Source of the DNA: a virus
Lineage: Duplodnaviria > Caudoviricetes
Reading direction: 5' to 3' (one strand)
Length of the DNA stretch: 64,000 nucleotides
IMG/VR virus record: IMGVR_UViG_2788500220_000014
Location: 37,405-101,404 of that record
Position 1 is the stretch's first letter; every line of letters begins with the position of its first letter. Both the position numbers and the translations under genes were made by a program. This document shows, one piece after another, positions 16,766 through 64,000 of the stretch. The notes below the pieces were generated by a model that saw nothing but the letters and a program-made list of their open reading frames with translations, did no database searches and was not told where the DNA came from.

Positions 16766-16806
16766 AATGTTATTTCCTTAAGTCCCGGTGCATCCCAACT
16801 GGGTGG

Positions 16807-19455: not shown

Positions 19456-19456
19456 C

Positions 19457-20103: not shown

Positions 20104-20104
20104 T

Positions 20105-20893: not shown

Positions 20894-20902
20894 GTTATCA
20901 TC

Positions 20903-22279: not shown

Positions 22280-22577
22280 TATATTCCTCTTCCGGTATGC
22301 TACTTTCGACGTCATCAGCCAAGCCACGGAGGTCGGCAGCTAACTCATGCCATTCCGACGGATTCGTTTGATCCATTGCTTGATTTATTATGTCAGCAAG
22401 GGTATGCCATAGTGGTTGATCATAAGAGCGGCCTTTAATCTTAACGCTTGAAAGGCTTCCTCGTTGAGCATCCATCTTTGCTGCTGCGATCCCCATATCA
22501 GCAGGAGTCATTTCATTTATTAGCTTAGAATGTTCTTCTTTAATGATTCTTTTTAATTGTCGTTTTGTGATTTTCAT
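22209..22577 (-). CDS. leader-tagged protein
   Basis: MKITKRQLKRIIKEE; 3' end overlaps next gene by ~70 nt. Confidence 0.75.
   Translation of the reverse strand: MKITKRQLKRIIKEEHSKLINEMTPADMGIAAAKMDAQRGSLSSVKIKGRSYDQPLWHTLADIINQAMDQTNPSEWHELAADLRGLADDVESSIPEEEYNENHKTTTEKNHQGRSDPCKKTS
22235..22280. repeat. 46-nt perfect repeat of leader-coding DNA (second copy 24009-24054)
   Basis: TTCTTCCTTGATGATTCTTTTCAGTTGTCGTTTTGTGATTTTCATT at both sites. Confidence 0.85.
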
Positions 22578-23332
22578 TAGTCTAACCTTACGTCAATAAT
22601 ATCTGGCACCATACGCTTAAGTTCTCGTAAACCAGCTGGATACATACTTCCAGGCATCTCAACTACTATGTCGATTGCCGTACCGTTATCACCTAGTTCC
22701 ATTACAACACCTGACATTTCGTCACCAGGTTGTATTCCGCCATATTCATCTTCATAATCTTCCCATGCATCGAAGCCCATATAGAATGTACCACTGCTTG
22801 GGCTGTAGCCAAGATAAGACTCCTGCCCTTCGCTATATCCGGATCGTTGAAGATACTGCCAGGCCTCACCAACACCGGGGCCCTCATAAAATACCTGATA
22901 TACGTTTACTCCATCAACCATTACACCTTCAGGCCAGGCGGCACTAACTTGTTCTTCGGTAACATCTGGATCCGTAAGTTCGGCCGTGATACCACTCATA
23001 TTACTTTCAGAAAGCCCTTCTTCTGATTCTGCAGCTGCCTTAAGGGCAGCTTTAGCTCTTGCGCGCCGGGTTTCAGAAGCTTTTCGGGCCCGATAATCCG
23101 CGGGGGACTCATCACCATACGGATTTTCTCGGCCGTAATAGTCAGCCTGTCTCTCGTTCCGGGTCCGTTGCGCTTTACGTGCACGATAGTCTGCTGGAGA
23201 CTCGTCACCATATTCGTTGTCAGGGCCATGGAGTCGATCGTTTAATCTTCTTTGAGCCTCAGGTGAACGTTCAACAAGTCTTGAGATCTCTTCTTTGATT
23301 ATTCTTCTTAGTTGTTTTTGTGTAATTTTCAT
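22577..23332 (-). CDS. leader-tagged protein with duplicated YGDESPADYRARKA
   Basis: MKITQKQLRRIIKEE. Confidence 0.8.
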   Translation of the reverse strand: MKITQKQLRRIIKEEISRLVERSPEAQRRLNDRLHGPDNEYGDESPADYRARKAQRTRNERQADYYGRENPYGDESPADYRARKASETRRARAKAALKAAAESEEGLSESNMSGITAELTDPDVTEEQVSAAWPEGVMVDGVNVYQVFYEGPGVGEAWQYLQRSGYSEGQESYLGYSPSSGTFYMGFDAWEDYEDEYGGIQPGDEMSGVVMELGDNGTAIDIVVEMPGSMYPAGLRELKRMVPDIIDVRLD

Positions 23333-23775
23333 TCTTTCTGCATCCACTCGTCCCCCCAATCGAGGTCGTCCATCCATGAGTCATCGCCGGCGTCTTCGTC
23401 GTCTTCGTCGTCATCAAAGGTCCCAAGAGCCAATAGGCTATCCCTTAGGTCAGCTGGAGCAGACCCATCATCTATAGCCCAATTAATCTCATCCTCTACA
23501 TCGGTGGGATCAGGGCTGCCATCATCAGTCATTTGATCAATACGTTGAGATAGAGGGTGATCTGGGCCCAATACATCCCTTATGTCTTCCCACATATAGT
23601 CAACAGTGTCAGTCCGGCTCTCATACTGTTCCCAATGTGCATCGGCAGCCAGAAAATAAGGGTGCCTCTTCGGCTTCTTCTTCTTTTTGTTTTTCTTTTT
23701 CTTTTTCTCAATTAGAATATTTCTAGAAATTTCTTCCTTGATGATTCTTTTGAGTTGGCTCTTTGTGATTTTCAT
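23329..23775 (-). CDS. leader-tagged protein with poly-Lys tract and acidic tail
   Basis: MKITKSQLKRIIKEE. Confidence 0.8.
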   Translation of the reverse strand: MKITKSQLKRIIKEEISRNILIEKKKKKNKKKKKPKRHPYFLAADAHWEQYESRTDTVDYMWEDIRDVLGPDHPLSQRIDQMTDDGSPDPTDVEDEINWAIDDGSAPADLRDSLLALGTFDDDEDDEDAGDDSWMDDLDWGDEWMQKE

Positions 23776-24053
23776 AGTCTTATCCCCAGGTTCCGAGCGA
23801 TTCTTTCAAGCATTCCCTCAAGTTCCTCCGAAGCATCCATTAAATCATAGTCATCGGTACCATATGCTTCTTGCAGTTTATCAGCAAACTCAAACATTGC
23901 ATTTAAAAAGCCCTTTGTCCCATCATGTAATCTCCAGTAATCCTCACCTGATACTGCCATGGACTCATTTTGAAGTGAGGCTCTCTCTTTTTTACGGTCG
24001 CTTGATATTTCTTCCTTGATGATTCTTTTCAGTTGTCGTTTTGTGATTTTCAT
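23772..24053 (-). CDS. leader-tagged protein
   Basis: MKITKRQLKRIIKEE. Confidence 0.8.
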   Translation of the reverse strand: MKITKRQLKRIIKEEISSDRKKERASLQNESMAVSGEDYWRLHDGTKGFLNAMFEFADKLQEAYGTDDYDLMDASEELEGMLERIARNLGIRL

Positions 24054-24054
24054 T

Positions 24055-24291
24055 TTAAAATCCTCCTGCCCTAATTGTATCTGCTATATCGCGATCTGGT
24101 ATGCCCATTGCTCGACAGCGCTCAATGCATGCTGTGAGATCGTCTAACGCCTCGAGTTGATCTAGGCTTCGATTTACATATAACTCTTCATCGACGTCAT
24201 TGTATTGTTCACCATAACGAGGGGCCTCTTTTAGCAATTTAAGCTTCTCTTCCTTAATGATCCGTTTAAGCTGTCTCTTGGTTATTCTCAT
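24055..24291 (-). CDS. leader-tagged protein
   Basis: MRITKRQLKRIIKEE from ATG 24291. Confidence 0.8.
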   Translation of the reverse strand: MRITKRQLKRIIKEEKLKLLKEAPRYGEQYNDVDEELYVNRSLDQLEALDDLTACIERCRAMGIPDRDIADTIRAGGF

Positions 24292-24292
24292 T

Positions 24293-24394
24293 CTAACATT
24301 GCCCTTTACAGCTAGTGCAACCGCAACAACCGCAACAGCAACAACAATGACTGTCATTAAATAAATTTGCTAATCTGTGTAATACCTTTTTCAT
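24293..24394 (-). CDS. 33-aa Cys-rich peptide (metallothionein- or RiPP-precursor-like), absent from ORF track
   Basis: MKKVLHRLANLFNDSHCCCCCGCCGCTSCKGQC; AAGGAG RBS; fills the gap between two array genes. Confidence 0.7.
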   Translation of the reverse strand: MKKVLHRLANLFNDSHCCCCCGCCGCTSCKGQC

Positions 24395-24430
24395 TTTTAA
24401 TCTCCTTTTATTGTTGATTGGTAACCTTCA

Positions 24431-24808
24431 TTATACCGGGGTTCCTTCAATTAACCATGTAAATAGATGCCATGGCTCACTTTCATTCCAGTATTCAGAA
24501 TATCGATCAGCCCAATCTTCAAAAGCATCAGTAAAATCTTTATTAAGCGCTGCCTTATCTGGTGCGATTGTGCCAGATTCCAGGCCTGATATTACGTCGG
24601 TAAATTGGGATAGATCTCTCTTCATATCATCATACCATGTGGTTGACTTATCTTGTGGATTGATCTGTTCAAACCCATACATCTGATTAACAGTTTCGTG
24701 CCAGGTATCAGGCTCGCGAGGGCCCTGATATGGGTCGTCGACACTATCAAACCACGGGTCAAGTTCTTCTTTGATGATCTGCTTAAGCCGGCTTTTTGTA
24801 ATCTTCAC
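24431..24808 (-). CDS. leader-tagged protein
   Basis: GTG start VKITKSRLKQIIKEE. Confidence 0.8.
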   Translation of the reverse strand: MKITKSRLKQIIKEELDPWFDSVDDPYQGPREPDTWHETVNQMYGFEQINPQDKSTTWYDDMKRDLSQFTDVISGLESGTIAPDKAALNKDFTDAFEDWADRYSEYWNESEPWHLFTWLIEGTPV

Positions 24809-24809
24809 T

Positions 24810-25166
24810 TTAATATCCCTCCGGGCGGGCCCATGCAATTATTTCGTCATCCGACATATCTTGTGCCATTACACTCGATGCCTTTGCTGCGGCTACAAAT
24901 TTCCTTGAGTCTCTTTTTGCAAGAGAACCTGGTGAGATCGAAATATCCATCTCAGCAAAGTCTCTAAACCCTAATTCATATGCCATATGATCCAGGTCAA
25001 GTATTCCGATATCCAATGCCTCAGAAAACTCGTACCAATTGGAATCCTTTGGGGGATAGCCATTCACCGGTGATGGTGGGCCGTGCGTACCAGTTCGATA
25101 CTCATTAACAATATGGGATACTTCTTCCTTGATGATCCGCTTAAGCTGTCTTTTGGTTATTCTCAT
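24810..25166 (-). CDS. leader-tagged protein
   Basis: MRITKRQLKRIIKEE. Confidence 0.8.
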   Translation of the reverse strand: MRITKRQLKRIIKEEVSHIVNEYRTGTHGPPSPVNGYPPKDSNWYEFSEALDIGILDLDHMAYELGFRDFAEMDISISPGSLAKRDSRKFVAAAKASSVMAQDMSDDEIIAWARPEGY

Positions 25167-25167
25167 T

Positions 25168-25587
25168 TTACCATGCTCCTGGTGTACCTTGAGGAAAACT
25201 GTATGCCTTACCATACTCATCTTGTTCATCGAGGATCATAATAATATCCTCAAATGATCGGAGACCAGGAAGAGTATGATCGTATGCAGGTAAATTAAAC
25301 AGATTATGGCTTCGGGCCCAGCGTACAAACTCTGACATATCTGTAGGTTGTGGACTTAATTCATATTCAGGTGTACCATAATTCGGATGTAAAGAAATTG
25401 TATAATCATCAACCACCTTGCCGGTGTCATCATATACGGTTACAGATGCCGCATCTTCACTCATGCCTCGATAGTTGAGGATGTCATATTCACTGTGCGC
25501 GCCGGCTGGAATGTTTGACGATTCGTGAAGGAGGCGGGATACTTCTTCTTTAATGAGCCGCTTAAGCTGTCTTTTGGTTATTCTCAC
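25168..25587 (-). CDS. leader-tagged protein
   Basis: MRITKRQLKRLIKEE. Confidence 0.8.
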   Translation of the reverse strand: MRITKRQLKRLIKEEVSRLLHESSNIPAGAHSEYDILNYRGMSEDAASVTVYDDTGKVVDDYTISLHPNYGTPEYELSPQPTDMSEFVRWARSHNLFNLPAYDHTLPGLRSFEDIIMILDEQDEYGKAYSFPQGTPGAW

Positions 25588-25598
25588 CGTGTTGTCTC

Positions 25599-25922
25599 CT
25601 ATCGATACATATCGGGGTTTGATAATACGTCTTCTAACTCAGCAATCTTATCATCGATTGACATCATACCAAACTCAGAATCATTGACTGTAGTAGCACC
25701 CATTGCTCTTTCTGCTTCAAGCGCCTCGATTTGATCTGCCTCGAATCCCGGGGCAGAAAGTATCTTTCGGTCACCTATGATTACACCATCAAATGCTGTA
25801 CCTGAACTATAAGTTACATTAACGACATTCTCACGCAGCTTACGCCGGACCTTGGCCTCAGCAATCAGCTTAGCCTTCTCTTCTTTGATTATTCGTTTAA
25901 GCTGTCTCTTGGTTATTCTCAT
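25599..25922 (-). CDS. leader-tagged protein
   Basis: MRITKRQLKRIIKEEKAKLIAE. Confidence 0.8.
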   Translation of the reverse strand: MRITKRQLKRIIKEEKAKLIAEAKVRRKLRENVVNVTYSSGTAFDGVIIGDRKILSAPGFEADQIEALEAERAMGATTVNDSEFGMMSIDDKIAELEDVLSNPDMYR

Positions 25923-25939
25923 CGTGTTGTCTCCTATGA

Positions 25940-26365
25940 CTATTGTATTCTATATACCGCATCTAAAGTTGAGTTGTCAACGTCAACCCAGTCACCACCA
26001 TCCCACATCATATATGCATCTGGGCCGGCGCTATATGGCGAGTTCATATCATCCCACCAGTGAACCAGCGTGCCATTAACAATAAAGAATTCAGATTCTG
26101 ATAATAGTTGATTCTGCGTTGGAACTTCAGTTTCGAAGTCCCCAGGGGAATGATCTGCACCTAATAGCCAATTCAAAAGATTTTTCTCTAACATCATCAT
26201 GGCATCTGGGAACATAGATCTAGCATCTTCTAACGTTACCTGTCTATTGCCCGGGGCATTCTCACATAATTTACGCCTGACCAATCGTCGGACCTTGGTC
26301 TCAGCAACCAGCTTGGCTTTTTCTTCTTTGATGATCCGCTTAAGCTGTCTCTTGGTTATTCTCAC
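25940..26365 (-). CDS. leader-tagged protein
   Basis: MRITKRQLKRIIKEEKAKLVAE. Confidence 0.8.
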   Translation of the reverse strand: MRITKRQLKRIIKEEKAKLVAETKVRRLVRRKLCENAPGNRQVTLEDARSMFPDAMMMLEKNLLNWLLGADHSPGDFETEVPTQNQLLSESEFFIVNGTLVHWWDDMNSPYSAGPDAYMMWDGGDWVDVDNSTLDAVYRIQ

Positions 26366-26508
26366 CGTGTTGTCTCCTATGACTAATCATATAATAGAGA
26401 CTCTCACGACACCAGCTTATGTGCGATAAATTTTTGGATTGTGTGAGTCTCATTTTATTTTCTCCTCGTGGGCACAGACTTTACAATATCCCACGCTTTT
26501 CACTAAGT

Positions 26509-52394: not shown

Positions 52395-52483
52395 ATACGG
52401 ATTCCGCGTAAAGAAATAGAATCGATCAAATGACTCCTAAATTTAATTATTAGTTTAGATAATTTTTACAGTAAAAAAAAGGC

Positions 52484-54364
52484 CTATATGCCCTTAAGAG
52501 CTAATTCTTTAATCGTATTAACGGATTTTCCGGTTTCATGAAGAATACCCAGGCCTCCTGCAGCATTCCATGTGCTAATCGTACTAGCTTTATCATCAAT
52601 TAAAATATTTGAAATACCAGCCGTAACAGCATACTCGGATTTCATTTTTGCAGAACGAACTATTACCTCTGAAGGAACTGGGCTTAGCCACTTGGTAGTC
52701 CACTGCTTTTTCCCATCTGCAGCCGTTGGAGCATCAATTCCATTACGCATATTGATAGGTGCAGTAAGTAACTTAACATCAAATCCAGAATTATTAATAT
52801 ATGACCATAATGCTCCGATACCGTCGTCTAAGGGTAGAAGACTAGCAAAAAAAGCTCCAGGTGCAAAACTAATTGCCGCATACATCAATGTACGTACAAA
52901 GGGTAAGTTAAGATCTTTCTTTGTTCGAGGGCGCCAACGGGGTCCTGAAGTATCATTTATATTTCTTATCGCCCTTCGCATAGACTTAGAATTCTGAACC
53001 CAGTCGGCACCTACAGTACCATCTAAAATCTTGCTGCAAAGCTCAATAGCACCGGTTTCAAAATCAACCAACACACCATCCATATCACAATATATTGTTG
53101 ACTTGGGTGTTATATCAGGTTCCCTATTATTATTTTGCTGTTGTTCATGCTCAAGTTCTTCGTTTAAAATAGACCTGATTAGGGCACGAACTTCTCCTAC
53201 TAATGTGCTATATGCTTCAGCCTCTGCATCATTCATTGCCTTACCTATGGCCGGCCCCTTTATCCCCTGGGCCATAAGATCCTTAGGATTAACTGCTGGT
53301 GGTGCATCGGCAAACTTTAGAAAAGCCTGGATGATGGATTCCGAAGGTGCACCCATAACCCTTGAGTACTCCTTAACCGTCGTCAACTGAATATCGAATC
53401 GGTTGTAATCTTTCTTAAGGGACGGTGCTGACTCCTTTGATATAGTTCCAAACCCGAGTAAGAACCGAATTGCTTTTTGTTCATCATTCGAGTATGTCAT
53501 ATTCTTAAGAACTGTGGAAACGGCGTCCTTAGAATTGTAGCTAAGGATTGCTGCAATTTGTGCTATAGGGTCGCTCGTTGAAGCCGGCATAATTTTTATA
53601 TCTAATCCAGGAAAAATCTGTCTAAATAAGCCTAACTCTTTTGTTAAATGCAGAAAGTGATTTACATCCTTGGCGGATGATATCCCCTTTATAAACTCAT
53701 CCCTAATTCTTTCAGGTGAAACTTCACTCAATGTATTGTCATTAAGAATGGCCTGCTTAGTCTCTGGATCTAAATCGGATCCCATTCTGCCGGCGAATCT
53801 TACGGCACGCAGAATTCTTAGGGGATCCTCATCGAATCTCTCGGCCGGATCGCCAACTGCCTTAATGACCCCATTTTCAATATCGCTTATGCCACCGACA
53901 TAGTCAACCACCTCACGTGTATCCATATCATAGAAGAGTGCATTGATCGTAAGGTCTCTTCGATTGACATCATCCTCGATTGTCGTAAACTTCACAGAGT
54001 CCGGACGTCGGCCCTTGCCAATATCTTCTCTAAATGTTGCTATCTCATATTCGCCACCCGCGCGCGTCTTCACCCTTACAACACCAAATGATTCACCAGT
54101 TAAATCAAGTCGCAACTGGCCTTGGCTCTGTAGTATCTGGATAACCTTATCAGGGACGGCATCGGTTGCCAGGTCATAGTCCTTCGGTGTCTTACCAAGC
54201 AGCACATCACGTACGGCACCACCAACAACATATAATTGTTTTCCGGCACCCTTCATTCGTTTATGAATATCCTGCAAGTCAGCAGGTATTGGCAGATCCA
54301 TGGATTGTCTCACCGGTTCCTCCAGCGTCATTGCTTCTCTTATGTAAGCATATAATATATTCAT
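52484..54364 (-). CDS. cca: CCA tRNA nucleotidyltransferase fused to 5'(3')-nucleotidase-like HAD domain
   Basis: VGGAVRD..KDYDLAT, RRDLTINA, EDPLRILRAVRF, ERI; C-terminal YCDMDGVL..LIDD. Confidence 0.9.
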   Translation of the reverse strand: MNILYAYIREAMTLEEPVRQSMDLPIPADLQDIHKRMKGAGKQLYVVGGAVRDVLLGKTPKDYDLATDAVPDKVIQILQSQGQLRLDLTGESFGVVRVKTRAGGEYEIATFREDIGKGRRPDSVKFTTIEDDVNRRDLTINALFYDMDTREVVDYVGGISDIENGVIKAVGDPAERFDEDPLRILRAVRFAGRMGSDLDPETKQAILNDNTLSEVSPERIRDEFIKGISSAKDVNHFLHLTKELGLFRQIFPGLDIKIMPASTSDPIAQIAAILSYNSKDAVSTVLKNMTYSNDEQKAIRFLLGFGTISKESAPSLKKDYNRFDIQLTTVKEYSRVMGAPSESIIQAFLKFADAPPAVNPKDLMAQGIKGPAIGKAMNDAEAEAYSTLVGEVRALIRSILNEELEHEQQQNNNREPDITPKSTIYCDMDGVLVDFETGAIELCSKILDGTVGADWVQNSKSMRRAIRNINDTSGPRWRPRTKKDLNLPFVRTLMYAAISFAPGAFFASLLPLDDGIGALWSYINNSGFDVKLLTAPINMRNGIDAPTAADGKKQWTTKWLSPVPSEVIVRSAKMKSEYAVTAGISNILIDDKASTISTWNAAGGLGILHETGKSVNTIKELALKGI

Positions 54365-54367
54365 TGT

Positions 54368-54397
54368 ATTATACTCCTGAGAACTGAAGATTTACAC
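54368..54397 (-). promoter_or_regulatory. phage promoter GTGTAA-N18-TATAAT abutting cca start
   Basis: Conserved motif. Confidence 0.55.
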
Positions 54398-54399
54398 GA

Positions 54400-54645
54400 T
54401 TAAATCCAGATTTTAATACAGCCATAATTTAAAAGGCTTTCAGATCTATTTACATCATATTGATCTAGTATCGATAAAACAATTTTCTTCATTTTATCTG
54501 AATTACCGGTGATGATATAAGCTTCCTCTAATTTACTCCAATGATCTGATAGAAAGTTGTGGCACTTTGCCTCTACATCCTCATGATTTGTACCATGAAG
54601 ATCAAGGGAAGGGGCGGGACGCTTCTTTTTATTTTTTCTTGCCAT
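54400..54645 (-). CDS. Smr/MutS2 C-terminal domain protein
   Basis: LDLHG..IITGNS..N.G. Confidence 0.88.
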   Translation of the reverse strand: MARKNKKKRPAPSLDLHGTNHEDVEAKCHNFLSDHWSKLEEAYIITGNSDKMKKIVLSILDQYDVNRSESLLNYGCIKIWI

Positions 54646-54976
54646 AAACTTTAGCTAAGCCCTCTTCTAGAAGCCAGTTGTTAATCGAAAGCTCTTCTTC
54701 ATTTTCATTAATGAATATCTCACCAAGCCAGCGGCCATACTTCCCACGCTTGTCTTTTGTAGTTTTTACCTTAACCCATTTATTTCCTATTTTTGCGCGA
54801 AGGGCATCCCTAGACTTAAGACCCTCTGGCCGCTCGGGACCTCGGACCTCTGGAGTATTAATGCCCAAAAGCCGAATCTTCTGTCCTCCTAAAGTTATTC
54901 CAAACCCTAGATCAAAATCGACAGTAATGGTATCACCATCATAAACTTTGCGAACAAATGCTCTATATTCATACAT
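54629..54976 (-). CDS. thermonuclease (SNase-like)
   Basis: VYDGDT, IRLLGINTPE, GKYGRWLG. Confidence 0.92.
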   Translation of the reverse strand: MYEYRAFVRKVYDGDTITVDFDLGFGITLGGQKIRLLGINTPEVRGPERPEGLKSRDALRAKIGNKWVKVKTTKDKRGKYGRWLGEIFINENEEELSINNWLLEEGLAKVYGKKK

Positions 54977-55054
54977 GATAATATTTTCCTATAGTAAAAA
55001 CTGTTTGTGATAATCTTTCATGAAGACTGGAGGCGGGCCAACTCCTGACCCGTA

Positions 55055-56209
55055 TCATTGTGCCATTCCTAATATAAGCAGCAATAATAAGGGCATGCCT
55101 ATTACAACAGCTAATAATACCCAAACCCACAATTTAACTTTCTGTTCAGGTGCCTGTTCAATCTTTTTAGGAGGCTTAGGATCTGGGTTATCTATCAGTC
55201 CCCACACTTCTATCATGTGACCATTCCTTGGGCCTGTAGGCGGACATGAATTTGAGCGCATGCGCCAAAAATCATTATAGCTCATTAATAAATACCCGGG
55301 AGGTAAATCCGGATCATTGGATGGAAGAAGCCCCCAGCTGTTTTGTATTATGAATCCTTTCTTATTCCATCCGATGATTGTCATAGCATGGCCGCCTTGC
55401 CATACACCTTCGCCTTGTTGGGCCCAAAAGTTTGAAGATGGATTGATTGCCCATACACCCCTATCCACTTCAACATTTGCATAAACAGAGACACCGAGGA
55501 GAAGCGGGCCAATTTTCATAAGTGCATGTTTAATACGCTGACATGCATCCCACCCCTTAGAGTCTAAAATTCGTTTAGGCAAATCAAATTGTACATACAC
55601 TTGATTGTTGGTTTCATTATAGAACTTTGTACGAAAATCTTTTGTTAGCTCTTGCCAGCCATCAGGCCATGCTTCTAGGGGGACAAATGGATCTTGCCAA
55701 CCATCGCTCATATCCTTGTCCGTCCAGTCTTTGTTGTATTCAAATATTCCAGGCGTTTCTGATCTACTTTTAATGACTTCCCATACATCCTCTGGACAAG
55801 GCATACCATACTTTATTGCAATCGATGCCGCCGTACGACCAGACATACCGGCGCTACACAACCACCTCTTAACACCTGCAATCGATTCGGTCATATATTT
55901 CTCTTGACCAGCTGGCCCACGTAGCAAATAATGTGAGACGGGAGAATACTTTACATATTTTCCTGTATCTCGCTCTTGTTGGATTTCCCTAACCTTCGTT
56001 ACAGCATGAGATGCACAGGAACCCCATTTTAGCTGATCTAAGACATCGTCATCAATCGATGAAGCAAAATACTCAATTGGAAACTCTTGATCGTCAATTA
56101 TTGCATAATCGGTATAAGAATAATCCCTAGTATCTTCAGAACTTGGCACAGTTCCTAAAAATACCTGTTGCCCTGTAGTAAGAATTGATGTTTTTGCCTT
56201 TTGGGTCAT
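55055..56209 (-). CDS. C1 papain-family cysteine protease with C-terminal TM anchor
   Basis: DQ..GSC, GGHAM, QNSWG. Confidence 0.9.
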   Translation of the reverse strand: MTQKAKTSILTTGQQVFLGTVPSSEDTRDYSYTDYAIIDDQEFPIEYFASSIDDDVLDQLKWGSCASHAVTKVREIQQERDTGKYVKYSPVSHYLLRGPAGQEKYMTESIAGVKRWLCSAGMSGRTAASIAIKYGMPCPEDVWEVIKSRSETPGIFEYNKDWTDKDMSDGWQDPFVPLEAWPDGWQELTKDFRTKFYNETNNQVYVQFDLPKRILDSKGWDACQRIKHALMKIGPLLLGVSVYANVEVDRGVWAINPSSNFWAQQGEGVWQGGHAMTIIGWNKKGFIIQNSWGLLPSNDPDLPPGYLLMSYNDFWRMRSNSCPPTGPRNGHMIEVWGLIDNPDPKPPKKIEQAPEQKVKLWVWVLLAVVIGMPLLLLLILGMAQ

Positions 56210-57072
56210 CTCTTTTTTCTCCGTTTTTGACGAGCAAGTACTTTACCTTGCTCCTTACTTATATCAACACCCATTCCCTTTCGGATTGTTTGCACAACTT
56301 CTTTATACATTTCCATCATCATCTTAACATCAGCTAACGCATTATGCCAATCATCAATATTGATGCCGTAAGCCTTTGATACTACACCCATTGATACAGA
56401 GTGATATCCCCAATTACCTTTCTTTATATACAGCTTATCAAGCAACTCCTGGGCCTCTGAGTCCCCTTCTCCTGCTCTCGTTTGGGTCTTTAATAGGGGA
56501 ACAAGGTAGTATTGCATGAGTTGCATGGTGTCTAGGACAGGATACTTCGGTAAGCTACCCTTTGATCTTACGTTTAGAAACTTTAAATCAAATGAAGCAT
56601 TCTGGGCGATGAATAATGGGTTTGGAAACCCGGCAGCCCATTCGAAAAAGTTGCCTAAGACTTCTTGCTCATCGCCGTATGTTCGGCCTTTTTCTCCATA
56701 TCGGGTCATAGCCAAGACTGCCTGAGGGTCTTTTAGCGGGCGCCGTGATTGTGAATTTTTCTTTTCCCACTCTTTTCGCTCTTCTGATTCTGGGTCATTC
56801 ATCAAGCGATCAGTTTCATCAGTGAACTTTATCTTCTCATTAAATTGGTCAAGCATTGTAGCATCCGACTGCCATGCATTTGGATCTACTGCAATTGCCC
56901 CTATCTCTGTTAACTGTGCAGAATTAGGGTGCATTCCTGTCGTCTCAGTATCAAAGAAGATCCATGTATTGTCAGCATATCCGTCGAGCAAATCTAGCAC
57001 ACCCTTAACTGTGCGGCCGGATAACTTATTCTCCACCAGCAATTCTCTTATGTACTCACGAAGTAGATTCAT
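56206..57072 (-). CDS. leader-tagged DEDDh 3'-5' exonuclease
   Basis: MNLLREYIRELLVE; DTETTG, NASFD, DT, HNALAD. Confidence 0.9.
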   Translation of the reverse strand: MNLLREYIRELLVENKLSGRTVKGVLDLLDGYADNTWIFFDTETTGMHPNSAQLTEIGAIAVDPNAWQSDATMLDQFNEKIKFTDETDRLMNDPESEERKEWEKKNSQSRRPLKDPQAVLAMTRYGEKGRTYGDEQEVLGNFFEWAAGFPNPLFIAQNASFDLKFLNVRSKGSLPKYPVLDTMQLMQYYLVPLLKTQTRAGEGDSEAQELLDKLYIKKGNWGYHSVSMGVVSKAYGINIDDWHNALADVKMMMEMYKEVVQTIRKGMGVDISKEQGKVLARQKRRKKR

Positions 57073-57743
57073 TCTGACAGGTCCTTTATCATCCAATCGA
57101 TTGCCGTATTTAGTGTGTACGTAGTCGCCTGGAGCTGTTCATTTCCATAAGCATTTTTATGACGTTTGATTGTCTTTGTATCATCCCAATCCTCAACGCT
57201 CTCCAATAATGCCTCTGCAAGATAAATTATGGAAAGATATGCTAGCTTTCCTACTTCAAAAACAGAGTCTGGAAATTCCTGCTCGCTGGCCTTGACGCTT
57301 TCAAGCCTTGATAACTTTTCAGTTGCATTAGCAATTAACTTAGGAGAAACATCACGGATATCCTGTACAGCTCTCTCAGCTGTTTCTCTCATTCTATCTT
57401 GATACTCTTCCTTATATTGAGTTACATCATTGAGCTGCATAACATACACGTCTTTTGAGTACTCAGAAACAACATCCATCATGATGCCTATTTCTTCGTT
57501 AAGGTGTTCTTCTTCAACTCGGGCCATTGCATGCCACTCTGTCTTACCGTCATACCCAACCCTCTTTCCTAAAGATCCTAAAATACAATGTGCAGCCTCC
57601 GCATACCTTGCAGCTCCTACGTTATACTCCATTATACTATTATATCCACCAGACGATGGAATTCCCCCATAGTTATGCCCCCTAATTGGGCACATATTTT
57701 CATTAATAAGCAAGGTGCGTATATATGTACGTAATAAACTCAT
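57069..57743 (-). CDS. leader-tagged hypothetical protein
   Basis: MSLLRTYIRTLLINE. Confidence 0.8.
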   Translation of the reverse strand: MSLLRTYIRTLLINENMCPIRGHNYGGIPSSGGYNSIMEYNVGAARYAEAAHCILGSLGKRVGYDGKTEWHAMARVEEEHLNEEIGIMMDVVSEYSKDVYVMQLNDVTQYKEEYQDRMRETAERAVQDIRDVSPKLIANATEKLSRLESVKASEQEFPDSVFEVGKLAYLSIIYLAEALLESVEDWDDTKTIKRHKNAYGNEQLQATTYTLNTAIDWMIKDLSE

Positions 57744-58267
57744 TAGAAATTCACCGCCCCTATAACATCAACATCTGGATACTGTTTTTCCATTTTGTCT
57801 TTGAGGTGACCTATCTCCTGTCGCATCATCTTACCAAAATGAATTAACATACCTGGCTTTGCATACCTTTTAAAGAACTCATCCATTAGTTGGCTAGCCA
57901 CCTTCTGGCCACCTTTGTCACCGCGGGTCTTCATATAATCGATATACCAGCCGTTGTCACCGTATTTATGAAAATCCAGAAATCCTATGACGCAAACGTC
58001 TGAAACACCGGGGACCATTTGGCCCTTGCGAGGCTTCTTTAACCTTCTGCCTGATCGGCCATAATGATCCCACTCTTGATATTCATTAAAATATGCATCA
58101 CGCATTGGCTTACCGGTCGGTGACATATTGGGTTCCTTTACTGAAGTATCGCAAAGTGCTAATCTTTTTACATTCCTTGCTCTGGCATATGTAAGAGGAG
58201 AGTCAAGCTCTCTAAACTCAATACCCTCTGCCAAAACTTCTCTTATGTATTTCTTTAATAAAATCAC
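57743..58267 (-). CDS. leader-tagged GNAT-like protein
   Basis: ILLKKYIREVLAE; IGFL..YIDYM..GQKVASQLM. Confidence 0.65.
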   Translation of the reverse strand: MILLKKYIREVLAEGIEFRELDSPLTYARARNVKRLALCDTSVKEPNMSPTGKPMRDAYFNEYQEWDHYGRSGRRLKKPRKGQMVPGVSDVCVIGFLDFHKYGDNGWYIDYMKTRGDKGGQKVASQLMDEFFKRYAKPGMLIHFGKMMRQEIGHLKDKMEKQYPDVDVIGAVNF

Positions 58268-58279
58268 TTTATAGATCCC

Positions 58280-59143
58280 TTAATATGCCATGTAGGTTTC
58301 CCAAAAGCCCTCACCATGTTTATCTTCCCACTCAGCATACTCACCTCTAGAATTATTACCATCTGGGAAAATAAATCTAGAGCCATCCTTCATAATAATT
58401 TCCCAATTAATCCCATTAAATGGTTCATCATGATCTGAATAAGTAGATATTGATTTTAAATGAGATTTCCCAATATCTCTATCGTACATAATCCCCAAAA
58501 TTGTATAAATATCTTGCATAGTCTTACGAGAAGGAGACGATCCAGCAGCATTAGGCATCGGGCCTGTTGTCGTAACAGTTACTGCAGTTACCCACTTTCC
58601 GCGGTCACGGTTCATATTTTTAAACCTTTTTAATTCTACCTTTGTACCAGCAGGAAGATTGTCAATTTTCTTTGCGAATCTGTCACCGGACTTTTTCCAC
58701 TTATCAAAAATTAACTCATCTGCATAAGAATGAAGACCAGAACGATTTCCGAGGCCTGGCCAGATATTTTTTCCAGCGACTGTTACCCGGTTTCCTTCTT
58801 CTGCCCAGTTTAGTATTTCTTGTGTTGGATCACCTGATCCTATTTGATCACCATACGATTCTCGGATGCGGGCTGCGCCACTTAAATAGTACCAGTCAAC
58901 GGCCGCGTTGACATCCTCATCTGTAAACTCACCTGGATATGCAGCCTTAGCATCATCAACCGCTATAGCATTAGAGTCACTCCATGTAGAATACCCAAGA
59001 TCAAACCCCATTTCTTGAATCATATCTAAAACTTCTTGAAAGCGGCGCGCGCGGTGTTGATCTATATTCAGTGATGGATCAGGGCCTTCTGTAATAGATT
59101 TCCGAATTAACTTTCGTAATCGTGATTTGGTTATTTTTATCAT
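58280..59143 (-). CDS. leader-tagged hypothetical protein
   Basis: MIKITKSRLRKLIRKSITE. Confidence 0.8.
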   Translation of the reverse strand: MIKITKSRLRKLIRKSITEGPDPSLNIDQHRARRFQEVLDMIQEMGFDLGYSTWSDSNAIAVDDAKAAYPGEFTDEDVNAAVDWYYLSGAARIRESYGDQIGSGDPTQEILNWAEEGNRVTVAGKNIWPGLGNRSGLHSYADELIFDKWKKSGDRFAKKIDNLPAGTKVELKRFKNMNRDRGKWVTAVTVTTTGPMPNAAGSSPSRKTMQDIYTILGIMYDRDIGKSHLKSISTYSDHDEPFNGINWEIIMKDGSRFIFPDGNNSRGEYAEWEDKHGEGFWETYMAY

Positions 59144-59161
59144 ACTAAAACTCTCCTAACA

Positions 59162-59620
59162 TCATCTAGGTACCTCTTCTATTCTACCACATATAACTAT
59201 GGGGGGTATAGGCTCAAAATCCCCTAAGCCAAAATCATTCGACATCTCTGGTCGACCGGCAGTCTGGGGATTCGTTGCAATGGTTATATGAGGATAAGAT
59301 ATACCAAGTGTATATAAAGGCAGATCACCAAGCTCAACTAGCCCAGTAATAACCTGATCATTCTTTGCGATTCCAACTATAGTTACACACTCTTCTGAGC
59401 CAATCCACCTAGATGGTAATCTATGCTTTGATTGTTGTCCGGATGCAGGTGATATTATAGTCATATGATGTGAGTGCAATTTCCATTTCTCAGGAGATAG
59501 TTTGGATAGTTCTTGATGAGATGTGCCATCTAAAACGAGTGCTGTATACTCTATGCTTTTATCAGGTGTTAAGTACATCTCAGATAACAGTTCCTTTATG
59601 TATACGCGTAGTAAATTCAT
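59162..59620 (-). CDS. leader-tagged 2H phosphoesterase
   Basis: MNLLRVYIKELLSE; HHMTI and PHITI; P..SN. Confidence 0.8.
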   Translation of the reverse strand: MNLLRVYIKELLSEMYLTPDKSIEYTALVLDGTSHQELSKLSPEKWKLHSHHMTIISPASGQQSKHRLPSRWIGSEECVTIVGIAKNDQVITGLVELGDLPLYTLGISYPHITIATNPQTAGRPEMSNDFGLGDFEPIPPIVICGRIEEVPR

Positions 59621-59826
59621 TATTCTTTTCTCCTATGTGAATAATCATTCCAGCCTTGGATCTTTTTACACATAGAATCTAGATTGAAGCTCTCCGGGGG
59701 GCTCCAGAATGGAAGTATTCCATGAAGGATAAGAAATATGCTACTCAACCCTAAATGAATTGCAACCTTACCGGCAAAGATTAGGTGGCTTATATACGTC
59801 TCGTTATTTTCCCTAAGGTGCTTCAT
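59620..59826 (-). CDS. DUF6356-like small membrane protein
   Basis: HL.EN.ETY..H..FA..HG..PF. Confidence 0.7.
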   Translation of the reverse strand: MKHLRENNETYISHLIFAGKVAIHLGLSSIFLILHGILPFWSPPESFNLDSMCKKIQGWNDYSHRRKE

Positions 59827-61889
59827 TTTCCGTCCACCATATTGACTATCTCTTTGATTGTGGCAGTATATACATCAATTCCCTCATCAGACATCTCTTG
59901 AATAAACTGCCTAAACTCTTCTTCACTAGGGTGATTCGGCATACCCCTACGTTGGTAATACTTTTTCCAGATATATACATTCTTGACCTGAATCTTATCC
60001 ATGACTATTTCGTCATACATTTTTAGTCGATGATAACTATCACTTGGCAGCTTGACTGAATCAACCACTGCCTCCCTAAGTGTGCCAGCATACTTCATCA
60101 TAACTTTCTCTGCTGAGTCTAAATAGTGCTTAATCATCGAGTTGAGCTGAACTTTATCACGCCGGCGGGCAACTTCACGCCATGTATCTAGCCCAGTACC
60201 TGCTTCAGGTTCATTTTTTTCTAGCCACCCGTTTATCGATGACAACAAGTCTTTTTTCATGGGATCAGTAATACTGGGATCCTTAACTAATCTCACAATA
60301 TATTCCATTGTAATATTTCTTCTGCCACCCTTCTCTGGAAGGGTGAACATGTCTTCCATACCTGATGCTATTTGTTGTCCCTCTACCTCTATGACAACTC
60401 CGCCCCTGGCAGTAATGCCCCCTTTTATAAAGTCAGCATTAGCTCCCCTAGTAAACACAGATGCTTGTTTGGAGGTACCCCTAATATCCAATAAACCGTA
60501 TGCCCCATTTAAGTTAGTAATGTGATAACCTTTCACCTCTTGTTTAAGACTCCCAAATATTCTGGTCATCATTTGTGAGCCGAGAGGAAGGAACATATCA
60601 TCTTCATCTCGAAATTGAATCATTGTTGAGTAACTTTCCTGATTTATAATCTTTTGCTTTTTTCCATACTTCTCAGTCAAAATCCTTTCGGTGTAAAGGC
60701 CATCTCCCTCATAAATAAATTCATTACGCTGATTAAATGCCAGCCCCTGAGCATCTCCTAAAATTTCGACCTCGGCCATACATTCGTTACGTGCTCCACC
60801 CATGATATCTGAGCCGGACCATGAAGGGAGAATATCTGATAGTTCTGGTACCCAAAACCCATAGTCCTCTAGATCATCAAATAGTAATTCACTAACCCCT
60901 ATCTTTTCAACATCTTCTTCATCTAAGTCCCGAATATCTTGAACATTATTATCAATCATATATTCAACAATCTTTACAACTGACGTTCTATCAAAACAAA
61001 CGTTCGAATCCATTACATCACGAAAAAAACCATACCCCTTATCAAAGAAAGTTGCACCTGACATGAGATCATCAAACAGCTCTTCGTCATAATCTAACTT
61101 TTCAAAATAGTAATGACGTAAGTCATCTTCAGAGACCATTCCTAAAGTATCGGCACCATTATATAAAAATAAAACCTTATTATACTCGTTGGCCGCATGA
61201 AGAAGGTCACCTATGTCGAATGAGAATCCGCTCTCGTATTCAGGTTGAACATCAACCACCACCACACTTCCGCTTGATGCTTGCTCCAACAAGGTGTGTG
61301 TGTACAATTCCATAAGGCCTAAAGATTTAAGAAAATTCTCTTGATTGTCTTTGTCAGATTGCTCCATACCCTCTTTATCAAGCAGCATATTTCTTCTGTT
61401 GGCAGTCTCCCAGCTATACTCATTAGACTCTTTCATCCATGCATCGCGATCCTGCATCATCGCATAGAGATCATCGTCCCATGGGCCTTCTCCACCTTTC
61501 ATGGCACAATTGAGTATAGCTTCTTCAGCAGTAAATTCTTTGTATACCTCAGGTTGGTACATGTCGTAATAGGCCTCTTTGTCAACTCCATTCGGTTTAG
61601 TTACCTTGGTCTGATCATCAAAAACCAGATCGCCCATCTCGACCCAACCGTGGACAACTGGCTTTGGAGGACTCTTCCATTTGTTTGTTACTGTACCATG
61701 AACAACCTTAAACTTGCTCTTGTCATTTAAGTCCGGATGCTTCTTTGCCGATCGGCCTGGCCTTCCCTTGGTATAGTATTTCTCAAACCATTCCTCGGCT
61801 TTCTGGTATGCAAAGGGAAAGCACATGCCTGTGGCAAGGACGTTTTGCTCTTTAAGGAGTTCCCTTATGTACTCACGGAGAAGTTTCAT
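59823..61889 (-). CDS. leader-tagged multi-domain protein (Cys-His-Asp hydrolase-like + isochorismatase-like + possible ART-like)
   Basis: MKLLREYIRELLKE; GMCF/HGWVE/FD; VVDVQP..GG..EC; YHIT..S..DEIV. Confidence 0.7.
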   Translation of the reverse strand: MKLLREYIRELLKEQNVLATGMCFPFAYQKAEEWFEKYYTKGRPGRSAKKHPDLNDKSKFKVVHGTVTNKWKSPPKPVVHGWVEMGDLVFDDQTKVTKPNGVDKEAYYDMYQPEVYKEFTAEEAILNCAMKGGEGPWDDDLYAMMQDRDAWMKESNEYSWETANRRNMLLDKEGMEQSDKDNQENFLKSLGLMELYTHTLLEQASSGSVVVVDVQPEYESGFSFDIGDLLHAANEYNKVLFLYNGADTLGMVSEDDLRHYYFEKLDYDEELFDDLMSGATFFDKGYGFFRDVMDSNVCFDRTSVVKIVEYMIDNNVQDIRDLDEEDVEKIGVSELLFDDLEDYGFWVPELSDILPSWSGSDIMGGARNECMAEVEILGDAQGLAFNQRNEFIYEGDGLYTERILTEKYGKKQKIINQESYSTMIQFRDEDDMFLPLGSQMMTRIFGSLKQEVKGYHITNLNGAYGLLDIRGTSKQASVFTRGANADFIKGGITARGGVVIEVEGQQIASGMEDMFTLPEKGGRRNITMEYIVRLVKDPSITDPMKKDLLSSINGWLEKNEPEAGTGLDTWREVARRRDKVQLNSMIKHYLDSAEKVMMKYAGTLREAVVDSVKLPSDSYHRLKMYDEIVMDKIQVKNVYIWKKYYQRRGMPNHPSEEEFRQFIQEMSDEGIDVYTATIKEIVNMVDGK

Positions 61890-62652
61890 CTTTTAACTCC
61901 TGGAATAAGCTGTAGAACCGCTTAACGTATCTTTTCTTTGTTTTCTCCGAAACTTTGCTCAAACGAAGTGGCTCGTAATTGAGATCAAATAGGTATTTTT
62001 GAAAATCCCTAAAGTCATCATTCTCTATAGCCGACCGCAATTTATCTCCTGTGTGACCTTTATCATCTCTGATAGCTTTTCGTGTAGAAGATATGATGGG
62101 AATAAGGCGAGCTTGTACTTCTTCTGTAGAGTCCTCATAAGCCTGTTTAGAAATATCAAACTGATCATCTCCACCAGCAGCCCTATATTTTTTGTCACCC
62201 GAGCGTGTCTTATTGATCTGATGAGTGAGTTCATGTTCTAAAATTGAAATGACTTGGGGGTCATTCGCAAAATAGCTTAACGCATTACCGGATTTTTGTA
62301 CCTTCTCAAAGACCGGTGGCGTAGGAAATATCTGCAACTCATTATCCGGAGTTATTTCTGCTCTCTTTTTGAGATAGCGAGAATTCGGATCCTTATTGGG
62401 ATTGATGATTGTGACAAAGAGTTCTTCGAACCCGTCAATCAAATCGGTACCTTCCTCAGGTAGCGGCATCTCTTTCATCTCATAGACTTTATAAACCATA
62501 CCGGAACCATCAACACCAAATTCTGGTCCTACATCAGCAAAATTTGAGCCAGATCTCATGCTAGAAATAATGGTGTCAATAAGATCAACATATTGCGAAT
62601 CCGATTTTCTTTCGGTCAACAGCTCTCTTATATACTCGCGTAGTAGTTTCAT
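61873..62652 (-). CDS. leader-tagged HExxH zincin-like protein
   Basis: MKLLREYIRELLTE; LEHELTH..EEVQAR. Confidence 0.75.
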   Translation of the reverse strand: MKLLREYIRELLTERKSDSQYVDLIDTIISSMRSGSNFADVGPEFGVDGSGMVYKVYEMKEMPLPEEGTDLIDGFEELFVTIINPNKDPNSRYLKKRAEITPDNELQIFPTPPVFEKVQKSGNALSYFANDPQVISILEHELTHQINKTRSGDKKYRAAGGDDQFDISKQAYEDSTEEVQARLIPIISSTRKAIRDDKGHTGDKLRSAIENDDFRDFQKYLFDLNYEPLRLSKVSEKTKKRYVKRFYSLFQELKDETSP

Positions 62653-63323
62653 AGTTTCACCAACCTGCCTGCAGAACTAAGCGCATCTAAAGTTGGTGAT
62701 CCAGTCGACTTATACAACTTTGATAGAGGGCTCTGTAATAAAATATCTTTACCATAAGGATCCCAAGGAGTCTCTTCATTCTCTTCATCCCAAAAATAAC
62801 CATCTTGATGCTCGTACGATAACCACTGCGGGCAATCGTCCCCCTTTGTCTCTGGTGTGAGACGACCAGATAAATCGTCTAACTGAATAGTGATTACATC
62901 TGGACGACGAGTGGCATAATAGTTCCAAATAGAATATGCATCGCTAGAAATGTTTCTTCTATCTGGTAGTAAACCGCTTCCTTCAGCAGTTGCAGTTTCC
63001 ATTGCAATATCATAAAGCATAGGACCAAATCCTTTAGCTTCATCATCAACATGAGCCCAACTAATCTCATATCCCCCTAGACAATCAGCTTCATCTGATT
63101 TAACTGCAGAAAGGATACCGATAGATGCCCTATTCATAATAGATGTCATGCCTAGATTTTTAGAAGAATTATTTTTCCAGTAGTCTACCTCTTTAGGATC
63201 CGCAATCCAGATCTCTATATCTCCATCATCTCTACTTAAATACACCTTCATATTACCGAGAGACTCGGGGCCCTTTGCAGCTTCCCTAATTAGCTCTTTT
63301 ATGTACTCACGTAGGAGGGTCAT
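62649..63323 (-). CDS. leader-tagged GNAT-like protein
   Basis: MTLLREYIKELIRE; KGFGPMLYDIAME..DR..S.DA..W. Confidence 0.7.
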   Translation of the reverse strand: MTLLREYIKELIREAAKGPESLGNMKVYLSRDDGDIEIWIADPKEVDYWKNNSSKNLGMTSIMNRASIGILSAVKSDEADCLGGYEISWAHVDDEAKGFGPMLYDIAMETATAEGSGLLPDRRNISSDAYSIWNYYATRRPDVITIQLDDLSGRLTPETKGDDCPQWLSYEHQDGYFWDEENEETPWDPYGKDILLQSPLSKLYKSTGSPTLDALSSAGRLVKL

Positions 63324-64000
63324 TCTCCGCTCCATATCTCGTTTTGTGATCTGTCGAAGATAGGTACGCCTATTTCACGAGCTAGCTTAATTATCTTTCC
63401 AACTCTGCCAGGTGGATCTTCATCAAGATCGCGACCCTTATTTAGTCTCTTTAATATTTGTATGACTTCATAGTCTGGAATGAGGCCTAAGGGTTTCCAA
63501 TTATCAACCAGCGCTTCACCACCATGAGACACTGAGTCCCACATCGATTGATCTAATACGTACGGAATATTACGAGCCATCTTTTCAGCAAACTCATTAC
63601 CACGTGTAAGTTGCCCATAACGACTATAGTCCTTCGACACAGTCGGTCGCTTATTTCTTCCGGAAGACTTATCTCTATGTGTGACCTCTTCTTCAGAACC
63701 CTCTTTCCCAAGGCCATAATCATCATAGTGGCCGGTATAGAGATTATCCATATCATTACCTGCTAGTGTGATTCTTCCTTTTACCCATAGACCAGTATTG
63801 CTTCCACTTATTGCAAAGTCTTCACCAGGTAAACTCATAAGTGTAGATAGCTCATCTTTGCCCTTACCTATCAAATCTTCTAAGGCATATACATCGCCCC
63901 AATGTACTGTGTTTAGGGTTGATAGCCATTTGTGATCTGCATTTTTTGCAAAGGCACGCTTAATTGCTCTACCCCCGCCTTTTCCAGGATCACCACCAAA
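63320..64000 (-). CDS. hypothetical protein, 5' end beyond window (possible ART-like fold)
   Basis: Frame open to 64000; TVHW..ELST..GL.VKG..D.LYT..EALVDN. Confidence 0.7.
   Translation of the reverse strand, partial: FGGDPGKGGGRAIKRAFAKNADHKWLSTLNTVHWGDVYALEDLIGKGKDELSTLMSLPGEDFAISGSNTGLWVKGRITLAGNDMDNLYTGHYDDYGLGKEGSEEEVTHRDKSSGRNKRPTVSKDYSRYGQLTRGNEFAEKMARNIPYVLDQSMWDSVSHGGEALVDNWKPLGLIPDYEVIQILKRLNKGRDLDEDPPGRVGKIIKLAREIGVPIFDRSQNEIWSGE

Follow-up and report, generated by a model that had tools for sequence, protein, structure and literature searches.

Exchangeable N-terminal leaders on enzymes of an uncultured T4-like jumbo phage as probable capsid-targeting propeptides

Why should a run of neighbouring viral genes, several of them for recognisable enzymes, open with nearly the same fourteen residues? 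The question is raised by one end of a 64,000-nucleotide stretch of the IMG/VR virus record IMGVR_UViG_2788500220_000014 (hereafter the window, to the whole of which coordinates refer unless a contig is named), which is part of contig C25, window position 63324 being C25:100728. Every gene from 52484 to the window end lies on the minus strand, and a first-pass annotation had reported leaders of the type L[RK]xYI[RK]xxL..E on selected enzymes among them. The leaders are indeed there: eight complete minus-strand genes within 52484-63323 begin with M-x-L-L-R-E-Y-I-R-E-L-L-x-E or a variant of it (class A), namely MNILYAYIREAMTLEE at start 54364 (degenerate), MNLLREYIRELLVE at 57072 (where a longer TTG-started open reading frame (ORF) from 57096 is unnecessary), MSLLRTYIRTLLINE at 57743 (without Glu6 and Glu10), VILLKKYIREVLAE at 58267 (a GTG start), MNLLRVYIKELLSE at 59620, MKLLREYIRELLKE at 61889, MKLLREYIRELLTE at 62652 and MTLLREYIKELIRE at 63323. 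Each tagged start has a GGAG-like ribosome-binding site 8-14 nucleotides upstream. We argue here that these leaders are probably capsid-targeting propeptides of the T4 type.

The leader is specific to its position and to this virus. When the window was translated in six frames, a strict class A regular expression gave seven matches, all at the N-termini listed above and none elsewhere; across the whole 4.9-Mb assembly, true tags were confined to the phage contigs C25, C16 and C13, and no N-terminal leader match was found in 30 unrelated viral loci, about 330 kb of control DNA. A second leader, class B (MKITKRQLRRIIKEE), belongs to the same system and heads some 21 tagged genes in a minus-strand array at 15694..26400. 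Inside the class A array, the gene at 58280-59143 opens with a class B variant of the MKITK..LR..I type, MIKITKSRLRKLIRKSITE, and the suggestion that this neighbour links the two classes holds up, as both share the core L-R-x-x-I-[RK]-E. The tagged array runs on beyond the window end.

The consensus of 94 distinct class A proteins reads M-[NK]-L-L-R-E-Y-I-R-E-L-L-x-E, and Glu14 is kept in 80 of them though it was absent from the search pattern; immediately beyond this residue conservation breaks down. In class B, 35 of the 36 proteins likewise keep the Glu of I-[KR]-E. All leaders terminate in [L/I]-x-E, and class A holds three such motifs in register, at residues 4, 8 and 12. The Leu, Arg, Glu and Tyr codons differ freely among leader copies and the DNA upstream is unrelated, which argues that selection acts on the peptide. 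A third leader, class C (MKLL[LF]ENWRKY[LV]xE), begins unrelated genes that form arrays on further T4-like viral contigs (L105 and L110-L114 of IMG/VR, 69-162 kb, plus one 8-kb fragment); it too ends in L-x-E and is found on the same 2H phosphoesterase, exonuclease, nucleotidyltransferase and HAD payloads.

The leader is a genuine add-on that lies outside the enzyme folds and is modular and interchangeable between payloads. Comparison with cellular homologues, by which the first-pass annotation proposed to check this point, supports it for the nucleotidyltransferase at 52484..54364, whose homology to solved CCA-adding and poly(A) polymerase (PAP) enzymes in the PDB begins only at residue 32-33, equivalent to residue 11 of 1miv. 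In 120 homologues of this enzyme the start lies 44-50 residues from the catalytic GG-x-VRD motif where a leader is present, as compared to 26-36 residues where it is not, the leaderless proteins beginning 10-20 residues nearer the motif. Among metagenomic homologues the same nucleotidyltransferase core carries class A, class B (e.g., MKITRRQLRKIIRE...) or class C (MKLIFENWRRF...) leaders. The 2H phosphoesterase family has class A members, one class B member and many class C members, with several beginning at the core YTALVLD, and all three classes occur among 120 homologues of the DEDDh exonuclease, in which leaderless entries are few, lie on short contigs and are possibly truncated gene calls. 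A HAD payload bears a class A leader in one phage and a class C leader in a second. The 130 tagged proteins fall into 62 payload clusters, one of which mixes A and B leaders. Paralogy as the source of the shared N-termini is ruled out, because these 62 clusters are unrelated and include different Pfam folds. In the AlphaFold (AF2) model of the protein encoded at 62649-63323, the leader forms a helix (residues 3-13) with a predicted local distance difference test (pLDDT) score of about 49, detached from the confident domain, and where gene fusion has internalised a leader, in a 688-residue protein described below, it has decayed.

What sort of virus carries these arrays? The assembly consists of a bacterial bin with a GC content of about 0.38 plus extra contigs of GC 0.40-0.41. 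One of the phage contigs, C13 (109 kb), is a T4-like structural block encoding a Peptidase_S77 (gp21) protease (C13:52398-53021; 94 bits) and a gp23-type capsid protein (211 bits), with portal, terminase, sheath and baseplate genes recognised by reading the ORF list. The nearest GenBank relatives of the capsid protein, at 37-42% identity, belong to an uncultured 484-kb phage, Microcystis phage Mel-JY01, Flavobacterium phage immuto and Rhodothermus phage RM378. Searching with a degenerate DNA version of the class A leader retrieved 28 stretches on some 20 IMG/VR contigs of up to 293 kb, which hold arrays of 2-10 tagged genes of both classes; five of the tag-bearing contigs (254-293 kb, one of them with terminal repeats and judged complete) each encode an S77 protease and a capsid protein, the latter 67-69% identical to that of C13. 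A single complete relative has homologues of 55 of the 84 genes of C13 and 35 of the 180 genes of C25, and also of genes on C16 and C6, while other contigs of the bin have at most two; C6 overlaps the start of C25, and C16 is 99.9% identical to window 32825-63324 before continuing into four more tagged genes. Since genes of C13, C25, C16 and C6 match one complete relative, the window is assigned, on this homology, to an uncultured T4-like jumbo phage whose genome measures roughly 290 kb and includes at least 34 tagged genes.

The point at which C16 and C25 part deserves mention. The two are 99.9% identical over 30.5 kb and split exactly at the leader codons of 62649-63323 (window 63324, C16:30500), past which C25 carries a different tagged gene and C16 its four further ones; either cassettes turn over at the strain level through recombination at leaders, or the assembly forks at a repeated leader. 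Class A leaders also occur on contigs L048 (NHDW01000006.1, 306 kb), L047 and L049 in three public metagenome-assembled genomes labelled Methylococcaceae, Peribacter and Flavobacteriales, which are probably mis-binned phage contigs of the same clade.

The comparison that leads us to capsid targeting is with T4, in which propeptides of 10-19 residues dock proteins to the scaffolding core (PMC9026906, PMC5694885), the capsid-targeting sequence (CTS) being MKTYQEFIAE. The protease gp21 removes these propeptides by cutting after Glu, for instance at ITE-6 and LTE-619 of Alt (PMC5694885), and genetic work assigns residues 4 and 7 to targeting and residues 8 and 10 to processing (PMC9026906). When class A is aligned to the T4 CTS from Met1, M1, K2, E6, I8 and E10 are identical, with L for Y at position 4 and Y for F at position 7, a similarity too short for statistics. 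Over 181 residues the phage protease shares 32% identity with T4 gp21, and the His, Ser and Asp motifs of the two line up; L59-R60-E61|A62 of the C13 capsid protein aligns with the gp23 site L63-T64-E65|A66, where the T4 propeptide of 65 residues ends. Six members of the clade have, one or two genes downstream of the protease, a conserved gene for a protein of about 140 residues that starts MAK[LIMV][ST][RK]..LK.[ILV]VKEC (MAKITKRMLKGIVKE or MAKLSRSQLKSIVKE), the first of these, from one member, being identical to class B at 9 of 14 positions. A putative scaffold (C13:47708-49555), so labelled from its position and a T4 gp22-like N-terminal motif, starts ..LY[HN]EAIAEAKQL and resembles both gp22 (MLKEQLIAEAQKI) and class A; a PHROG scan of the head-module proteins named only the protease and the capsid protein. 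The S77 protease is also encoded by four of five class C contigs.

Looser pattern scans gave one class B-like start in Flavobacterium phage immuto and others in the huge phage LR756508. In this 484-kb uncultured phage (LR756508.1, L045), six consecutive small genes with class B-like starts stand just upstream of the head genes, at 160-163 kb, and four paralogues of about 250 residues starting M[RK]LK..L[LK]E follow its capsid gene (L039:14784-19474).

Because the tag resembles the T4 CTS and ends in a head-protease cutting site, the tagged proteins are probably packed into the head and injected. The first-pass proposal, that chosen enzymes are packaged by way of the tag and reach the cell ahead of phage gene expression, is supported in part. 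By analogy with T4, the leader would form a short amphipathic helix, one face presenting L3/L4, Y7/I8 and L11/L12 and another face E6, E10 and E14, and would dock the fused protein onto the scaffolding core during head assembly. The gp21-like S77 prohead protease would then cut after the Glu of [L/I]-x-E at the leader end, probably at L12-x-E14 for the main cut, or alternatively at I8-x-E10, and the mature enzyme would remain inside the capsid until, at infection, it exits together with the DNA. Class B (MKITKRQLRRIIKE|E) and, in sister phages, class C (MKLLLENWRKYLxE) would be interchangeable versions of the same device.

Several points weigh against this proposal. The likeness to the T4 CTS, itself of 10 residues, covers little sequence and was spotted only in hindsight, and docking, cleavage, virion retention and injection of the tagged proteins are steps that we infer from T4. 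Leaders of these classes were found in no cultured GenBank phage: tblastn with leaders of 22-25 residues from classes A, B and C gave no match at E <=10 in 50,697 GenBank phage records, for which such short queries are low-powered. The T4 late-promoter motif TATAAATA is not enriched (11 matches as compared to 7.5 expected) and has no match upstream of the arrays, nor did inspection of intergenic regions between structural genes, with a few candidate k-mers, reveal a shared alternative late motif; a sigma-70 promoter scan was at chance level. Most payloads are acidic, with isoelectric points of 4-5.6, unlike the basic internal proteins of T4. Finally, the link between C25 and C13 rests on homology to single complete relatives and not on assembly overlap, and contig-end overlap did not join the two.

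Might the leader take its payload to the prohead core and no further? The payloads would then be expendable filler, degraded and expelled like T4 gp22, gp67 and gp68, and nothing would be delivered. Many payloads, above all those of class B, are in keeping with this, being small and acidic with further [LI]-x-E sites (up to 5 per 100 residues), as is the resemblance of class B to the N-terminus of the head-module protein; the class A payloads, however, are enzymes that fold, keep their catalytic motifs intact and contain few internal sites, and catalytic residues kept across hundreds of metagenomic homologues would be pointless in filler, and we regard this alternative as unlikely. It is also improbable, in our judgement, that the leader is a helix for assembly or localisation that has nothing to do with the capsid and gathers the enzymes at, for instance, a phage hub, a factory for replication or translation, or some membrane site in the infected cell. 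An amphipathic helix is what the leader is predicted to form, and capsid association is itself something that we infer, but such a role leaves unexplained the invariant terminal [LI]-x-E, the strict co-occurrence with phages encoding the S77 protease and the likeness to both the T4 CTS and the head-module protein, and a hydrophobic core such as signal peptides have is absent from the leader.

The two further alternatives treat the leader as something other than an address. Three in-register protease-type motifs might mark a degradation or timing tag by which a phage or host protease removes the enzymes at a set stage, yet prohead proteases of the T4 family work inside proheads (PMC5694885), the loss of 14 residues leaves an enzyme undestroyed, and the decay of a leader that is no longer N-terminal fits docking better than mere cleavage; we consider such a tag very unlikely. 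Alternatively, the conserved 5' coding stretch might be an element acting as RNA or DNA (a translational operator, a recombination site or an assembly repeat), the peptide being incidental. The divergence of C16 and C25 exactly at a leader speaks for it, but class A copies differ at synonymous positions throughout and have no common upstream sequence, and the peptide is conserved across phages whose capsid proteins are 67-69% identical, and we attach hardly any credence to this explanation. Capsid targeting of the T4 type remains our preferred reading of the leaders, and it is with this reading that we turn to the genes that bear them, all encoded on the minus strand.

The last gene of the array (52484..54364, leader nucleotides 54317-54364), directly followed by a hairpin and T-run resembling an intrinsic terminator (52478..52495, minus strand), encodes a class II nucleotidyltransferase of the CCA-adding/poly(A) polymerase type. 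It matches Pfam PolyA_pol over residues 44-167 (5.8e-36; 124 bits for a cut-off of 23, with the GG-x-VRD and DxD region present), PolyA_pol_RNAbd, and PHROG 2244 and 2643, and the PAP and CCA structures of the PDB score equally against it (E 1e-37). Fused to its C-terminus, and replacing the C-terminal body and tail, is a HAD domain resembling 5'-3' deoxyribonucleotidases; in relatives the enzyme has one leader and is fused to HD, NUDIX, DUF192, SET, PAP2 or the first module of the 688-residue protein. The three genes that come next were said to lack the tag, and the N-termini of the genes in 54400-56209 are indeed untagged: a Smr-like protein (54400..54645; N-terminus MARKNKKK; 24.8 bits for a Pfam Smr cut-off of 25.7), a nuclease of the SNase family (54629..54976; Pfam SNase 5.2e-11) and a weakly papain-like protein with a C-terminal hydrophobic segment (55055..56209). 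The identity of the last as a C1 protease is weaker than had been claimed, the Peptidase_C1 match (E 0.0037) falling below the cut-off.

The DEDDh 3'-5' exonuclease (56206..57072, leader nucleotides 57031-57072) matches Pfam RNase_T over residues 38-254 (8.4e-10; 39.9 bits for a cut-off of 24), and its translation contains the motifs FFDTETTG, NASFD and HNALAD (H-x4-D). Adjoining it is a 224-residue protein with a class A variant (57069..57743, leader nucleotides 57699-57743) that has no match in Pfam or PHROG and for which an Atlas search gave no usable function. Two GNAT-like proteins had been proposed for the array, an identification that is weaker than had been claimed. The class A-tagged protein at 62649..63323 has moderate fold support, in that its AF2 model (pLDDT 82.7) has only GNATs among its top fold matches (Foldseek E about 1e-2; VIA Z of only 6-7.5 over 100-125 residues). 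The 174-residue class A-tagged protein at 57743..58267, with its GTG start, is weakly GNAT-like, possibly in its C-terminal half: its match to Acetyltransf_CG (E 0.0033) is below the Pfam cut-off, its PDB profile match is to 1z4e at E 0.26, and its model is of low confidence (pLDDT 66) with mixed fold matches. The class B-variant gene at 58280..59143 (leader nucleotides 59087-59143) encodes a 287-residue protein whose homologues in L022 and L010 bear the canonical class B leader.

The class A-tagged 2H phosphoesterase (59162..59620, leader nucleotides 59579-59620) is of the tRNA-ligase cyclic-phosphodiesterase type. Its motifs HHMT and HxTIA (HITIA) are invariant in 25 homologues, and PF08302 (tRNA_lig_CPD) is matched by 18 of the 25 family members, the window copy alone not falling below E 0.01; profile searches of this family and of that of the 174-residue protein against PDB sequences found nothing significant. 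An untagged hydrophobic ORF of 68 residues (59620..59826) lies between it and the class A-tagged gene at 59823..61889. The 688-residue product of the latter, described in the first-pass annotation as a multidomain protein, is better described as two cargo modules, each found by itself elsewhere, joined in one chain: residues 1-154 and residues 192-413 both have counterparts among tagged proteins that occur separately in related phages, with 88% identity to a 155-residue protein of L026 and 67-71% to proteins of 339-383 residues in L023 and L027. The alignments extend through the leaders of these proteins, and the decayed internal leader, LMELYTHTLLEQ, lies at nucleotides 61281-61316; tblastn found no match to the 688-residue protein among GenBank phages. 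Leader-like segments also lie 250-500 residues inside long ORFs of related contigs (L018:7846, L020:10779, L021:6633 / L036:7166 and L027:3332), each preceded by [ILVM]-[NQ]-E-[SD], itself a protease-type site, and these ORFs may be fused cargo genes processed as polyproteins.

A class A-tagged HExxH (HELTH) protein (61873..62652) has no Pfam or PHROG match, the Atlas search giving viral hypothetical clusters and a weak SprT-like lead, and the 5'-truncated gene at the contig end (63320..64000) is of a family that is class A-tagged in related phages, with 52-69% identity to tagged proteins of L011, L012 and L020 from about their residue 39. Taken together, and judging from homology, the cargo here appears to resemble a toolkit for RNA and tRNA ends, made up of the class II nucleotidyltransferase, the RNase T-like exonuclease and the cyclic phosphodiesterase of the tRNA-ligase type.

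Some observations from the surroundings may be recorded here. Just downstream of the array (50701-51315 and 51567-52394) come a SET-domain protein, untagged, and a protease that is trypsin-like and has a signal of the lipoprotein type, and a SET domain is fused to the tagged nucleotidyltransferase in one metagenomic relative. Upstream of the window, a RelA/SpoT-type HD hydrolase (C25:13082-13600) is a further tagged gene, its non-ATG start giving ..VLREYIKEVCG, like the starts in relatives with a fused nucleotidyltransferase, and the adjacent genes at C25:8084-12562 appear, from their N-terminal sequences, to encode PrkA-like kinase, SpoVR-like and YeaH/DUF444-like proteins, a trio unusual in a phage. 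The replication region on C13 has a tagged acidic protein of 81 residues starting MSNLLRNYIRSLLE (C13:17027-17272). The complete 293-kb IMG/VR relative carries two tandem capsid paralogues of about 630 residues with identical N-termini (G001:176269-180150), and C13 shows one. Ten contigs (C1, C4, C7, C15, C21-C24, C29 and C33) have a GC content of 0.43-0.46, as compared to 0.37-0.39 for the bin and 0.40-0.41 for the phage; C7 and C15 share identical sequence, and these contigs may be another organism or element.

This leads us to a tentative speculation, to which we give well under even chances: that a whole clade of marine or aquatic T4-like jumbo phages uses interchangeable "address labels", drawn from the N-termini of its own scaffold and core proteins, to load 20-35 proteins per virion, the class A cargo being a pre-packaged repair kit for tRNA and RNA ends. 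The leader classes may then route cargo to different places in the head or set different copy numbers. The kit would comprise the nucleotidyltransferase, the RNase T-like exonuclease, the cyclic phosphodiesterase, HD, NUDIX and HAD hydrolases and a GNAT, and could act in the first seconds of infection against abortive-infection defences that cleave tRNA or other RNA.

Should the leaders function as they do in T4, a plain sequence motif would be enough to recognise the packaged and injected virion proteins of an abundant group of uncultured jumbo phages, a set normally reachable only via mass spectrometry of cultured phages; were the address-label speculation true, one could take the injected proteome of uncultured phages straight from their sequence. 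From a T4-like mode of action it would also follow that capsid targeting can extend to about a tenth of the genes in a genome, enzymes and multi-enzyme fusions included, and pre-packaged RNA-end processing would be indicated as an early-infection strategy. The leaders and their cognate protease are, in addition, candidate parts for loading foreign proteins into phage heads beyond E. coli and T4.

How does this system compare with those already described? In T4, the tRNA-repair enzymes Pnkp and Rnl1 counter the anticodon nuclease PrrC, and they are made after infection and are not known to be packaged. Healing of RNA ends by a phage is common to both, the cyclic phosphodiesterase and the CCA-type nucleotidyltransferase here being of tRNA-repair type, whereas packaging would set the present enzymes apart and their repair role is presumed, no search for a ligase or kinase having been made. 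In the matter of packaging T4 is the closest parallel, as its internal proteins IPI-III and Alt carry the CTS (Mullaney and Black 1996; PMC9026906, PMC5694885, PMC3012670), and the CTS has already been put forward as a means by which T4-like phages load varied proteins (PMC9026906). In both, an N-terminal peptide of 10-19 residues, a putative propeptide in the present phage, sits on unrelated proteins and ends in [L/I]-x-E, the gp21 (S77) site; gp21-, gp23- and gp20-type head genes are present; and class A shares M1, K2, E6, I8 and E10 with the CTS, with hydrophobic or aromatic residues at positions 4 and 7, a likeness over very few residues. In contrast to T4, which has a handful of tagged genes, there are at least 34 per genome here, with two co-resident leader classes and a third in sister phages, swapped on the same payloads, and class A has 14 residues with three in-register sites. 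The cargo here is mostly acidic and includes recognisable enzymes and multi-enzyme fusions as compared to the small basic DNA-binding inhibitors of T4, and the carriers are uncultured jumbo phages known from sequence, with a capsid protein about 34% identical to gp23, aligned over the C-terminal 242 residues only.

The phiKZ-like phages and SPN3US are likewise jumbo phages that load dozens of head proteins, with propeptides cut after Glu by a gp21-related protease and ejection-protein paralogues that share identical N-termini, but their propeptides are mostly longer than 100 residues and are cut at an A/S/G-x-E motif, and the accounts cited here describe no short tag that is transferable among unrelated payloads (PMC5694885, PMC10052503). 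The hypervariable internal-protein loci of T-even phages come nearer, being variable gene arrays that keep a CTS-like start and have been read as arms-race cargo (Repoila et al. 1994, cited in PMC9026906); those loci, as summarised there, encode small basic proteins in close relatives of T4, whereas here we find enzymes, several leader classes and fusions in distant marine or aquatic relatives. Full-text search found the leader strings in no paper, and related literature searches turned up no account of them. The CTS principle and the T-even phages' variable CTS-bearing loci are established; what is new is the scale, the several exchangeable leader classes, the enzyme and fusion cargo and the occurrence in an uncultured clade of jumbo phages.

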